Below are positions 1-4,200 of a stretch of DNA of 24,266 nucleotides, piece after piece. The stretch is taken from positions 1 through 24,266 of IMG/VR virus record IMGVR_UViG_3300017912_000320; one strand, written 5' to 3'. A model generated the notes under the pieces. The model saw only the letters and a program-made list of their open reading frames with translations. It was not told where the DNA came from and did not search any database. Source of the stretch: a virus. Lineage: Duplodnaviria > Caudoviricetes. Made by a program: the position numbers and the translations under genes. Within the stretch, counting starts at the first letter, position 1, and every line of letters begins with the position of its first letter.

Positions 1-9
1 GAGGTAGAC

Positions 10-222
10 ATGTTCTATGCAAGTTTGATTGGCTGTCACTTGATGATGAAGAACGCCTGTTTTGAAATGAAAGATGACAGGGGTCCTTATGAAACTGAAA
101 AGCAATGTGAAGAACGTATCGATGAAATGCTGGCAGACACAATAAAAATGTGGCTTCAATTTAAATCACCGATAGCGGTAACAGGATGGAAGTGTGAGAA
201 AAAAGATGGCGTCTCAACCTGA
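10..222 (+). CDS. Small hypothetical phage protein (70 aa)
   Basis: ORF track; GAGGT Shine-Dalgarno at 1-5 upstream of ATG at 10; overlaps the next ORF as expected in an operon. No function recognised. Confidence 0.7.
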   Translation: MFYASLIGCHLMMKNACFEMKDDRGPYETEKQCEERIDEMLADTIKMWLQFKSPIAVTGWKCEKKDGVST

Positions 223-373
223 GTGCTGGTCATGTGGACATCAGCTAATATGGGGCGGTGATCATGATAGTGAAGATGCAGATGGCAAAGAATATATTGA
301 ATCAAACCTGCACTGCCCCAACTGTGATGCCTTTTATCTGTACTTTCAGCCCCTAGAAGGACCAGATCAGTGA
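206..373 (+). CDS. Small zinc-ribbon-like protein (55 aa), not in ORF track
   Basis: Hand translation: MASQPECWSCGHQLIWGGDHDSEDADGKEYIESNLHCPNCDAFYLYFQPLEGPDQ*. Two CxxC pairs; fills the gap between 10..222 and 370..564; its TGA overlaps the next GTG start (GTGA at 370-373). Confidence 0.8.
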   Translation: MASQPECWSCGHQLIWGGDHDSEDADGKEYIESNLHCPNCDAFYLYFQPLEGPDQ

Positions 374-564
374 CAACACAAACGTGGTATTATCAAAAGT
401 GCTGGCGAGATGGCGGCGCACCCTTCTGGGATACCTATGTTCATGCAGAATGTAGGGTGATTAGGCAACAAGAAAGAAAAAAACGTGATTCTCAGCGACC
501 TGAAGGTACTATGACACAGCTATCGTTCATGAACGCCCTGAGAATCGATGTTAAAAATCAATAA
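370..564 (+). CDS. Small hypothetical protein (64 aa)
   Basis: ORF track; GTG start coupled to the upstream TGA. Its 3' end overlaps the tail of the minus-strand ArfA-like ORF. Confidence 0.5.
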   Translation: MTTQTWYYQKCWRDGGAPFWDTYVHAECRVIRQQERKKRDSQRPEGTMTQLSFMNALRIDVKNQ

Positions 565-696
565 AAACAACCACATAAAAAAAGAAAGGGTTCTGCCCTT
601 CCTTCTGTAAGACCCCTTACCTTTGCGGGGTTTGACTATTTTTAGCCTGAATCGTCGTAGTTTCAGGCTTCTTGCGACTGGGTTTTTGGTTCGCAT
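520..696 (-). CDS. arfA: ArfA-like alternative ribosome rescue factor (58 aa full length), not in ORF track
   Basis: Hand translation: MRTKNPVARSLKLRRFRLKIVKPRKGKGSYRRKGRTLSFFMWLFLLIFNIDSQGVHER*. AGGAG Shine-Dalgarno 7 nt upstream of ATG. Contains N-x5-L-x4-FR-x7-KGKGSYxRKG, which aligns without gaps to E. coli ArfA residues 14-43 as recalled from memory; basic core and hydrophobic tail. Confidence 0.75.
   Translation of the reverse strand: MRTKNPVARSLKLRRFRLKIVKPRKGKGSYRRKGRTLSFFMWLFLLIFNIDSQGVHER
577..606 (-). terminator. Rho-independent terminator ending the late operon, inside the ArfA-like ORF
   Basis: Minus strand reads AGAA-GGAAGGG-CAGAA-CCCTTTC-TTTTTTT: 7-bp stem with one G-U pair, 5-nt loop, U7 tract. 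Lies where the two transcription directions converge. Confidence 0.7.
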
Positions 697-830
697 GCTA
701 CTTCTCCTTGACAGCAGTCATCAACTATCTGACCACATGTAACACATTGTTCGTGTCCGTGTACATAAGCTGTCTTCAGATTCCCCTGACACCGTGGGCA
801 GCGAGGTGAGCAGTGTTCCTTACTCTCCAT
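663..830 (-). CDS. Small Cys-rich protein (55 aa), not in ORF track
   Basis: Hand translation: MESKEHCSPRCPRCQGNLKTAYVHGHEQCVTCGQIVDDCCQGEVACEPKTQSQEA*. 8 Cys including two CxxC, HGH and CC; start overlaps the lysozyme 3' end, end overlaps the ArfA-like start. Confidence 0.75.
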   Translation of the reverse strand: MESKEHCSPRCPRCQGNLKTAYVHGHEQCVTCGQIVDDCCQGEVACEPKTQSQEA

Positions 831-1281
831 CTGCCAGTGCCCTCATGCGTGTTACCAAACGACGTGCGCGGTTCGGCACCTGCGTATACCACTTCGAGTC
901 GACCATCTGATCGGCTGCTTCATTGAAGTTTCGTGCGTCTACCCCTGCCTTCATTCCGACAAACTTTGACAGGCGGGGATACCCCAGGTTGAACATCATG
1001 TTTGCAATAATAAGCTGACATTCTTCTGGTAGGTCATTCCAGTCTGGGTACAGACGGTGACAGTCCTCAAGTGTAACAGCGATGTCCAACTTGAACACGT
1101 TGTCCACACGTTCCTGTTCAATGACTGTGCCTACTGGTAGGCCGTACTCAGGGTCGTCTTTTTTAATGAGGTGACCAATTCCAAAAGTTGGTAAATTTAG
1201 GTGGTCCAAATATATTTCGTACTTGCAGCCCTCGTCGGAGGCAAGCTCCTGACGTAGCTGGTCTATGGTTGTAGATTTCAT
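820..1281 (-). CDS. T4-type lysozyme / endolysin (GH24 muramidase)
   Basis: DEGCKYEIYLDHLNLPTFGIGHL has the T4 lysozyme E-x8-D-x5-T catalytic spacing and GIGH; NMMFNLG and SKWYTQVPNRARR match the T4 lysozyme C-terminal motifs. ATGA overlap with the upstream gene. Confidence 0.93.
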   Translation of the reverse strand: MKSTTIDQLRQELASDEGCKYEIYLDHLNLPTFGIGHLIKKDDPEYGLPVGTVIEQERVDNVFKLDIAVTLEDCHRLYPDWNDLPEECQLIIANMMFNLGYPRLSKFVGMKAGVDARNFNEAADQMVDSKWYTQVPNRARRLVTRMRALADGE

Positions 1282-4200
1282 TGTTGTGTCCTCTGGAAAA
1301 TCTGTAAGTTTTTCAGCGCATCGATTGGATTGCCGCCGGAAAGTAATGGAAGTATACCACCACTGCTTTGTGGTTGTGAAGTAGGTGCGGGAGCCGCCGT
1401 TGTTTGGGCAGGAGCGGCCCCCGCTTGCGCTACCGCCGGAGGAGTTGCGGTTGCTGCAACTGGTTGTTGGTCAGGCTCATCAAGAACCAAGGGCCGAGAT
1501 TCTTGAACCTGTGGCTCTGATTCTGGCTGTGCGCCTAGTTTAAGTTTACGAAACTCTTGTCTAATACGATTAAGTTCAGGAATGGGTAAGCGGTTGTCGT
1601 TGTCCCGAACTTTTTTCTTAATTTCTTTTGATGGTTTAAATGGAGCAAAGTCACCGCGCATTAGTTCAGAAACATTTGCAACTCTGTTTTTCTTTAATGT
1701 TCTACGAATTTCTGCGTCTGAGACACCTAACTTACGCATGTTCTCGATGACGTAAAACATTTCATTCATAACTCTGAACCGCGCCTCGTTTGCGGCCCTA
1801 AATGTGTCAATAGCATTCTGAGGGTCAAGCTGACTGCGAGTACTTACAGCGGTGTTAAATATCTGAGACGTGCTTTGCAATGCACGACCGTATTCATATC
1901 CACGATACATCATGATGTTTTCAGGCTTGACTTCATTTTCGGTAATGCCTGTAAATGCTCTGAAGACTTCTTGAGCAACTCGACGTTCGTTGCCATTTGG
2001 GTCTGTGGTGTCAGACATCAGTGACCGAGCAAAGCGACCGGGTTCCATTCCTGGCTCCTGAGTTTCTTTCCTCATACCTTTTAATGTAACGGGCACAGCC
2101 CCCGGAACGAAAGAATCAGCAATATGGAAGAAGCTTTTCATTGCTTTATCACCGACTGTGTCTTCTTGACGGTATACTTTAGCACCAGTTTGTGTTCTAC
2201 CGTTACGAAGTGTGGTGTCTACAATTCGTTCTGTAACAATTGATTCGCTGGCAAACGGGTCAAATATTTCTTTTACAGCACCTAGTATTGCATCAGAAGC
2301 AATCTTGCCAGTGTCGCTGCCCATGTCTTCACCACGATTCACCGCGTTTAACACTGCAAGAAATGGCCGCTGAAGATAATCATACGGATTTGTATAACTG
2401 TAGTCGATATATCCTGTGACTTTGCCATCTTTTACAGAAGTAGGAATCAAGCGACTGTTCTTTTGCCAAGGAGCCGCTGTCTCTCGAACCGCTTCCATTT
2501 GTTCTTCGATGTTGTCTATACCTGTCAAGTCCATCGCCATCTTTTGTATGGTGGCAGGAGCGACAAACATTGTCATTGAAGCACCCATCAGTCTGCGCAT
2601 GCCGACCTCATTTATTCCTTTGACTGCGGCAGCAGCTTTATCCGCGTCACCACCAAATCTAGCAATCATTTTGTCATCAACTTTGACTGCTAGTTCATCA
2701 AGAGCCTGTTTGAGTGTGTTGGCACTGGTGCGGATAATTTCAGCAGGGAAGGCGATGAAGTTACCAACAGGAAGTTTACGCAGGCTTTTAATAATTTCTG
2801 GCACACGCTCATAGTTAGGCACAGTGTTCTTTACTATATCCGCCGCGTATTCATCTGAGCTTTTTCCAAAGACAGCCCTAACTTGGTCTTCTGTGCCCAA
2901 GGCTTTTAAAATTTTGTTTTTCTCAAATTCAAAATTGTAAACCTTCCAAACGTCATCACCACCCTGATAGAAATCACGAGCCTTTGTGTTTACACCTGAA
3001 AGAAAGCTGCCCATCTTTCCTCTGCGAAAAGTATCCGCAAAGCTTCCAGAAGTAGGAAGACCAAGTTGATCTACTTGAGCGGTTCTTGTACCGCCAAGGC
3101 CCTCTGATATCAAACGGTCAATTTCTCTAATTTGAGACTGTGTACCAACAACACCGAGTCTTTGCATCTTTTGAAAATACTCTGCTTTGTCTGGACGTTT
3201 GGTTATGTTGTTCCAAACAAGACTAACGCTATCAAACAAGTTTGCACCTGCGCCAACATTGCCCTGCATTGTTGCAAACAGACCAGCAGATGTTACGTTG
3301 CGGACCTGTGTGATCGGAGAGTAGATAGTTTTACTGGCTTGAGAGGCACCCTTGGCTCTAAGAAACCCGGAATACAAAGCACGAGACAAATTACCCATAG
3401 TTCCAGCATCACCAAAAACTCTGGTGGTAATGTCTTTGTACACTCTATTGTTTGCATACAAGCCTTCTAAAGAACCATATCCAGACTTACCTTCAAGCTT
3501 AGTGTAGTTTCTTTTTTGAGCCTCCGTAAGACTATTAAAACCATCTGCACTTAAAAACAGACCGCGTTCTCCATCAACTAAATTTGTTGTTATGTATTTA
3601 TTAAAATCATCAACCGCCCTAAACTCTGCCATGTCAGCAATTGTTCCAATGAATGCTTCCTGTGGGTCTTTTATCTCGCCTAGTAGCCGACGAAGTTGAT
3701 CTGGCACAGCTTGTCTTGTAGCAAACATTCCTGTTTTAATTTTATTCTTTGCAATCCTGTCTGGCTTTTGACCGCTTTTAGGTAAAAATCTGTTTGCGTT
3801 AGAATAATTATCTATGTACGCCTGTGTCAGCCTTTCAGCAAACTCAGGCTTTGTTCTAATGCCTGTTGCATATTCTAAAATGTCACCTTCTAATCTTTGC
3901 ACTCCAAGTTCATCAGCAATTTTTTCAGCAATCTTACCATTCTGTTGAAAGAACTTAACCGTCTTTGCTCTTTCAGCAATAAACTCATCTGAACCTATAA
4001 AATTTTTATCTTCAAATATTTTGTAACGACGACGTAGGTATGAACCAATGTTTTCTTGGATAGCTAGAATAGCCTCATCTCCTGCACCTTTAGTTAAATA
4101 ATCAGAGTTAATAATGTCTGAAGATAACTTGTCTACCTGTCGGCGCATTTTTTTAGCAGGTCGGCGCATGAGTTCTGGAAGTGCGGTTAGTTCTGTTTCA

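Follow-up and report, generated by a model that had tools for sequence, protein, structure and literature searches.

The locus described here raises the question of whether a phage can place a homologue of the ribosome rescue factor ArfA under non-stop control, a form of regulation established for bacterial arfA and brfA (PMC8012679). The DNA analysed, referred to throughout as the window, is the 24,266-base virus record IMGVR_UViG_3300017912_000320; it has a G+C content of 41-49% and represents approximately 41% of a genome. Our best reading, to which we give slightly better than an even chance, is that the window encodes a short phage ArfA homologue whose message would be rendered non-stop by an internal terminator, making the product a back-up rescue peptide gated by tmRNA.

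An ArfA-like gene at the end of the late arm

The gene lies last in a minus-strand run extending from 24163 to 520, which encodes tail, adaptor, ejection-type and virion proteins, a lysozyme, a Cys-rich ORF and finally the ArfA-like ORF. This late same-strand run is approximately 23 kb long and ends at the site of a hairpin. The features around the gene are as follows.

820..1281, minus strand: phage lysozyme (PF00959, above cut-off), on the same arm and upstream of the ArfA-like ORF
663..830, minus strand: small Cys-rich, zinc-finger-like ORF, overlapping the start of the ArfA-like ORF by 34 nt
704..708, minus strand: Shine-Dalgarno-like AGGAG, 7 nt upstream of the ATG
520..696, minus strand: ArfA-like ORF (from the ORF list), 58 aa to a TAG, final gene of the late/structural arm
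577..696, minus strand: segment of 39-40 aa that would be translated from a transcript ending at the U tract, approximately E. coli ArfA residues 10-49
370..564, plus strand: final ORF of the convergent arm (from the ORF list), overlapping the ArfA-like tail in antisense

Among cultured phages, the adaptor is best matched by HTVC027P and HTVC023P of Pelagibacter (31-36%), and a close relative's polymerase by 023Pt_psg01, DSL-LC04, HTVC023P and HTVC027P (46-52%), which indicates that the window phage is a distant relative of HTVC023P-type phages. A counterpart of the plus-strand ORF 370..564 is present in L002-L004 and was not seen in L006 and L016; in relatives, small convergent plus-strand ORFs lie downstream of DNA polymerase. 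The Cys-rich ORF matched no Pfam or PHROG family. Read from 830 to 663, it has the pattern CxxC...HGHEQCxxC...CC and accompanies ArfA-like genes of both the non-stop and the fused forms described below: a homologue precedes the gene in the close clade as well as at 16 loci of the fused form. A search of the window, and thus of about 41% of the genome, found no tRNA or tmRNA. A promoter-like site at 1380-1351 was considered as a conserved dedicated promoter and rejected, as it is absent from several relatives. Further up the arm, the N-terminus of a 1302-aa virion protein (5186-5100, minus strand) carries a tandem repeat, VLKLDEPSAG twice followed by VLKLDEEP.

The sequence-only reading had called the gene ArfA-like, and homology searches agree. 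The Pfam ArfA family (PF03889) matches at 28.2 bits against a cut-off of 25.5, over residues 16-35 only. A family profile built from 71 sequences, namely the window peptide and 70 short sequences among the 150 matches listed, finds the solved E. coli ArfA chains with an E-value of about 5e-11 and nothing else below E 3.5; the window peptide alone matches these chains with E 0.005-0.012. A six-sequence profile retrieved 653 proteins (E 0.001) from a set of representatives at 50% identity. The window protein had no match in NCBIfam and none to PF23876 (DUF7230) at E 0.1, a family that matches weakly in one fused homologue. The ArfA-like gene is single-copy in each of the five related records searched. 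Searching cultured phage records by tblastn with the peptide, a short homologue and the zinc-finger ORF returned nothing, which shows little because the queries are short and basic; HTVC027P gp30 was later found by profile. A weak profile match in HTVC023P lies off-frame in an A-rich stretch from which the motif is absent, and was rejected.

In an ungapped register, window residue n corresponds to E. coli ArfA residue n+9. N14, F25, KGKGSY and RKG are kept, and KGKGSYRRKGR aligns, on sequence alone, to E. coli ArfA 34-44, ahead of the predicted cut. Residues that are not kept in this register are A18 (R in the window), L19 (S), L24 (R) and the KH motif (RT); the family's invariant Ala falls one residue earlier than E. 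coli A18, and the window peptide has no equivalent of E. coli residues 1-9. In E. coli ArfA, A18 packs on I11, and L19, L24 and F25 bind Trp319 of RF2 (PMC5378476). Strand 27-30 and the N-terminal fold also count among its RF2-contacting and activating parts, and the positions changed in the window peptide have roles in RF2 activation or channel binding in E. coli. Given the altered A18, L19 and L24 and the missing residues 1-9, activation of RF2 cannot be assumed.

These substitutions bear on an alternative in which the peptide is also gated by tmRNA and occupies the empty mRNA channel but activates no release factor; it would then compete with SmpB-tmRNA or leave ribosomes parked. The basic channel-binding segment is fully kept beside a short and altered RF2-activating N-terminal part, and the E. 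coli variant A18T is reported to bind and to recruit RF2 and yet to give no release (PMC8012679). We nevertheless consider such a plug unlikely. The F25 equivalent is kept, BrfA and the 40-aa ArfT activate release factors through different N-termini (PMC8012679; 10.1101/465609), and the same short form occurs with a normal stop on SAR11 chromosomes, where a housekeeping rescue role would suit it.

A hairpin and U tract within the reading frame

The hairpin consists of GGAAGGG (602-596), the loop CAGAA (595-591) and CCCTTTC (590-584), written as minus-strand letters, and its stem includes one G-U pair. It divides the ORF into a part that would be translated and a tail.

584..602, minus strand: terminator-like stem-loop with a 7-bp stem and a 5-nt loop, extendable to 606-580
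577..583, minus strand: U7 tract (seven T in the sequence), the predicted mRNA 3' end
520..576, minus strand: unconserved read-through tail, with a hydrophobic sequence in the window, overlapping the end of ORF 370-564 in antisense

The codon map places Y30 at 609-607, R31 at 606-604, F39 at 582-580 and F40 at 579-577. Hairpin and U tract span codons 32-40, and the TAG at 522-520 lies 55 nt beyond the U tract. Letters and codon map thus agree with the original observation of a hairpin and U7 inside the ORF, approximately 55 nt before its stop; the start at 606 given there reflects four extra bases able to lengthen the stem. The hydrophobic run FFMWLFLLIF occupies codons 39-48.

A 43-nt piece containing the hairpin has a folding energy of -13.2 kcal/mol (z -2.42; 5/200 shuffles), and when the same nine residues are recoded synonymously, just 3 of 2000 variants fold equally well. 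The core stem of the window (-7.8 kcal/mol, vs about -10 in most relatives) is slightly weaker because of its one G-U pair. Its U tract is longer, with seven U vs six in eight bases, the latter being the count in 12 distinct relatives tabulated. Read on the plus strand the hairpin is weak (z -1.18), and it is therefore not bidirectional in the window. Under a strict terminator filter, which left the first 330 nt of each strand reading unscored, the hairpin is the sole passing site within the window. It is thus the only strict terminator on the late arm there, in line with its earlier description as the late-operon terminator, and it probably also ends late-arm transcription. A loose scan for the terminator consensus picked up the hairpin and gave no overall enrichment (4 sites in positions 1-3000 vs 3.1 +/- 1.8 in shuffles). 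A second hairpin and U run past the stop (approximately 517-483) was rejected as a designed back-up terminator, having a z-score of -0.06 and not being kept in L006-L013.

The layout is constant among close relatives. Of 20 viral loci found, 18 form a close group (79-97% alike), and each of them has retained the hairpin, with no stop before the U tract ends. The sequence-only reading would have been contradicted by homologues with a stop before the hairpin, and within this clade none has one. All 18 also keep the GGAG of the ribosome-binding site. Stem pairs are preserved in 25-27 of 27 related sequences, non-stop and fused forms together, with one stem position occurring as G-C in 18, A-U in four and G-U in three. 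Outside the close clade, a normal stop without any hairpin is the prevailing arrangement among homologues. The two more distant loci differ: in L021 (35% alike) a different terminator occupies this position, and L020 has no hairpin, its frame stopping five residues past the motif.

Codon variation among 14 distinct close sequences separates three segments. Codons 12-30 show nine synonymous variants and one amino-acid variant, codons 31-40 show none and seven, and the tail shows seven and 31. This pattern points to protein selection on the core and RNA selection on the hairpin, with none visible on the tail, although part of the large tail variation arises because the tail has been replaced by other DNA. 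ORF lengths vary accordingly among the close relatives: 58 aa in nine loci, 72 in one, 88 in five and 114 in two, with one contig ending early. Over the first 12 tail residues, GRAVY ranges from 1.9 to -0.28; the window and L002-L004 have a hydrophobic tail, and in other close relatives it is polar or replaced. The ORF's own C-terminal end is polar. The tail had been likened to the destabilising tail of full-length ArfA, and a conserved degron is not supported, since the feature passes from strongly hydrophobic to polar among close relatives. The accompanying caveat that the hydrophobic run could be a by-product fares better, and from the sequences it probably is one.

The RNA data bear on whether transcription stops at the hairpin. 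Four RNA or probable RNA runs contributed small shares, as assembled contigs only. One RNA-library contig from a close strain, at a depth of 3.1, extends 35 nt past the U tract; it may represent read-through, RNA of the convergent arm, or DNA. If the terminator were leaky, the working product could be the 58-aa read-through protein, with or without a hydrophobic degron. The bridging contig, the G-U pair in the window stem and the hydrophobic tail of the window and L002-L004 would all fit such a product. It is very unlikely in our view, however, because a 7-bp stem followed by U7 is a strong layout, the length and sequence of the tail are unconstrained among relatives 79-97% alike, and the contig has its other possible sources.

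Layouts in the wider family

We classified homologues by the position of stop and terminator. Of 308 motif-bearing loci, 239 were kept (profile score of at least 40 and 170 nt of flank), giving 199 distinct sequences; L012 was left out owing to its short flank, and the window was counted apart from the viral classes because the energy cut-off of the classifier missed its stem. Among the matches listed, a sample of the roughly 1,200 viral matches, 67 distinct viral sequences have a stop but lack a terminator, 23 are non-stop and 24 are fused. A stop followed by a terminator was found among these matches in L233 by the strict classification and in L186 by a looser scan. Twelve of the 23 non-stop viral sequences listed lie outside the window's clade and have other hairpins in the same place, again with no prior stop; L200 and L296 are borderline, with a TAA at the end of the U tract. 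A tree of 112 rows and 30 columns requires seven changes of the non-stop label, of which well-supported branches force only two.

In a crude orientation count, in which several loci are misread, 54 of 63 stop-bearing forms lie mid-operon with a same-strand neighbour, and terminators within ArfA-like genes occur where the gene is last in its arm. Viral loci and the window together contain 25 strict terminators among the matches listed: ten lie in ArfA-like genes, nine have no long sense ORF, and six lie beyond a long ordinary ORF. The last group provides a small control, in which all six follow the stop and none is read through. L021 and L258 account for two of the six: in each, a single hairpin acts in both directions and was counted here on the strand opposite the ArfA-like gene. 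The convergent gene ends before this hairpin, and the ArfA-like frame does not.

Several further groups were observed in these data. L049, L053, L057 and L092 (approximately 970-1400) form a second non-stop group located at the end of a replication arm, downstream of a gene resembling DNA polymerase and an ORF of 84-90 aa with no known family; several of its hairpins work in both directions. ORFs on large viral contigs (L188, L207, L214, L223, L224, L237 and L250) combine KGKGSY-x-RK with the N-terminus K[ST]xEELxx[YF]xxF[KR][KR]RG, score low on the mini-ArfA profile and are perhaps a separate branch. In L081 (approximately 1290-1320) the hairpin in the ArfA-like ORF is oriented for the opposite strand and is directly followed by the stop, with Lys codons providing the U tract for the convergent transcript.

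In other phages the layout is also found at the end of replication arms, so it has no fixed link with virion production. This affects the proposal that abundant stop-less late transcripts serve as a sink that titrates host tmRNA-SmpB, for which the site does have the merit of terminating a 23-kb same-strand late gene run. We consider a sink extremely unlikely. Stalling would be limited to ribosomes that start at the ArfA-like cistron, which leaves this part of the sensor-or-sink claim in the sequence-only reading without support. Moreover, any stop-less ORF would serve as a sink, yet all the read-through terminators found were in ArfA-like genes.

The fused forms show that the hairpin also occurs in another context. 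In some relatives the ArfA module lies within a longer basic protein, often behind the Cys-rich gene (16 loci). The homologous hairpin outperforms the recoding null in 12 of 14 comparable fused sequences (at most 9/2000), and it is followed by a weak U tract of two to five U in the next eight bases. An exact 20-nt pattern occurs at 32 viral loci; at 30 it falls within an ArfA-like gene, of the non-stop type in 18 cases and fused in 12. The downstream part of the fused protein corresponds to phrog_17747, and two of 78 phrog_17747 loci contain an in-frame ArfA; L399 and L430 encode the same phrog_17747 protein without the insert. Modules in-frame inside small basic phage proteins (phrog_17747 and others) were observed in L024 (1135-1494), L038 (1138-1503), L324 and L325. 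The inserted modules have the same hairpin, are flanked by M/L-K-x-G-G junctions and are often directly followed by an in-frame ATG; as a speculation, the junctions might be processing sites.

The window clade nests among the fused forms, in a weak tree (SH-aLRT 80 and 86, 30 columns). Together with the retention of the hairpin in fused relatives, this nesting suggests that the hairpin may predate its non-stop role here. The sequences would fit either an order in which the hairpin came first and the U tract was then gained in the window's clade, or a hairpin that travels with the cassette as a non-stop signal, acting also via leaky termination or processing. The first order leads to an alternative in which the layout is a by-product. 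On relocation of the two-gene cassette to the end of the late arm, which needs a terminator, a hairpin from a fused ancestor would have gained its U tract, and the loss of the stop would have been tolerated and not selected as a switch. The synonymous constraint on the same hairpin where the U tract is weak, the nesting, the mid-operon position of most stop-bearing forms and the status of the hairpin as the arm's only strict terminator are all in keeping with this history. We give it only a small chance, since ordinary terminal genes stop first (6/6), other lineages have the same layout with unrelated hairpins (among the matches listed, a stop and then a terminator is seen in L186 and L233 only), and the peptide core is under purifying selection. 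Whatever the origin of the hairpin, the mRNA would in any case be non-stop.

In a scan of bacterial genomes, 80 of 80 loci stop 4-16 residues past the KGKGS motif without a terminator, and 78 of these are titled Pelagibacter, Pelagibacteraceae or Pelagibacterales (SAR11). On these SAR11 chromosomes (78 of 80 loci, within L104-L183) the ArfA-like gene encodes approximately 35-45 aa and ends in a normal stop. The peptide cut at the U tract therefore has the natural length of its SAR11 homologues. Its predicted end corresponds to E. coli ArfA position 48-49, slightly beyond the 47 residues reported as the shortest active length (PMC5378476), and on sequence grounds a product of 39-40 aa is plausible as an active form, as had been proposed for a peptide of about 39 aa. 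A survey reported no arfA in 2,376 Alphaproteobacteria (PMC11633108); 401 sampled genomes of the class of an alphaproteobacterial locus gave 16 matches. The motif was located in seven of 17 alphaproteobacterial loci, four of which stop early and three of which have a long hairpin before the stop, two with a U run (L310 and L311). The stems of L310, L311 and L308 are long and imperfect and more like RNase III sites, and the terminator call in L308 is doubtful.

The predicted message and known systems

Our best reading draws on the homology, the position and conservation of the hairpin, the absence of a prior stop, selection on core and hairpin, and the drift of the tail. Its functional steps, from termination and tmRNA tagging to empty-channel binding and release-factor recruitment, are modelled on E. 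coli arfA and B. subtilis brfA. Host RNA polymerase, on which the related phage HTVC027P is reported to rely (PMC12753301), would halt at 577, ending the late arm and leaving a message without a stop codon. Ribosomes initiating at the AGGAG site would stall past codon 39-40, and tmRNA would tag the 39-40 aa peptide for degradation. The peptide would accumulate only when tmRNA-SmpB is overloaded during infection, and it could then bind empty mRNA channels and recruit a release factor, by analogy RF2. Counting against this reading, the non-stop form is a minority form and HTVC027P gp30 has a normal stop; a terminator is needed at the arm end anyway; one RNA-library contig crosses the site; and the RF2-activating N-terminus of E. 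coli ArfA is only partly kept.

If the best reading is true, the phage retains a host feedback circuit, senses the trans-translation load and supplies a rescue factor on demand. A broader reading, which we hold to be improbable, is that an ArfA cassette of 35-40 aa serves marine phages as a tunable module that can be wired in three ways: with its own stop, gated by a terminator, or with the same hairpin inside a basic polyprotein between M/L-K-x-G-G junctions. The gated form would then be a counter-defence, switched on when host mRNA-cutting defences flood tmRNA, so that ribosomes become available again for late phage synthesis; its release route may differ from that of E. coli. Marine phages and SAR11 chromosomes commonly carry the short ArfA branch, despite its absence from the survey of Alphaproteobacteria (PMC11633108). 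A 39-aa peptide and a 30-nt hairpin also offer an easy test of what ArfA minimally needs for release-factor activation.

Among known systems, E. coli ArfA (YhdL, PF03889; PDB 5MDV, 5MGP, 5U4I, 5H5U) shares the core of N14, F25 and KGKGSY-x-RKG, and its gene likewise has a stem-loop within the ORF ahead of the stop and a poorly conserved tail. The window gene differs in being phage-borne, approximately nine residues shorter at the N-terminus, and without A18, L19, L24 and KH in register. E. coli arfA has a long RNase III stem that is also able to terminate (PMC3989581), whereas the window has a short terminator-type hairpin. In this respect it resembles B. subtilis BrfA (YqkK), in which an intrinsic terminator before the stop gives a non-stop mRNA under tmRNA control (PMC8012679). 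The active form of BrfA is approximately 62 aa, against the 39-40 aa predicted here, and PDB matches up to E 10 for the family profile and the peptide included no BrfA chain. Francisella ArfT is similar in its length of approximately 40 aa and its basic KGKGS-like stretch; its stop is preceded by neither a terminator nor an RNase III site, and it partners with RF1 or RF2 (10.1101/465609).

In marine phages, arfA has been annotated as gp30 of Pelagibacter phage HTVC027P, reported to be highly expressed both early and late (PMC12753301), and as g10 of Citromicrobium phage RXM (PMC8953757). HTVC027P is a marine phage among the closest cultured relatives of the window phage; its ArfA-family gene differs in having a stop seven residues past the motif, no terminator, and a location before the small terminase. 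The available text on gp30 (PMC12753301) and g10 (PMC8953757) makes no mention of non-stop control, and a search of mostly open-access literature found no paper on such control of a phage arfA. The annotation of arfA in phages and the non-stop control of its bacterial counterparts are thus known; what appears to be new, judging from the sequences, is a short phage ArfA homologue with a conserved non-stop layout.
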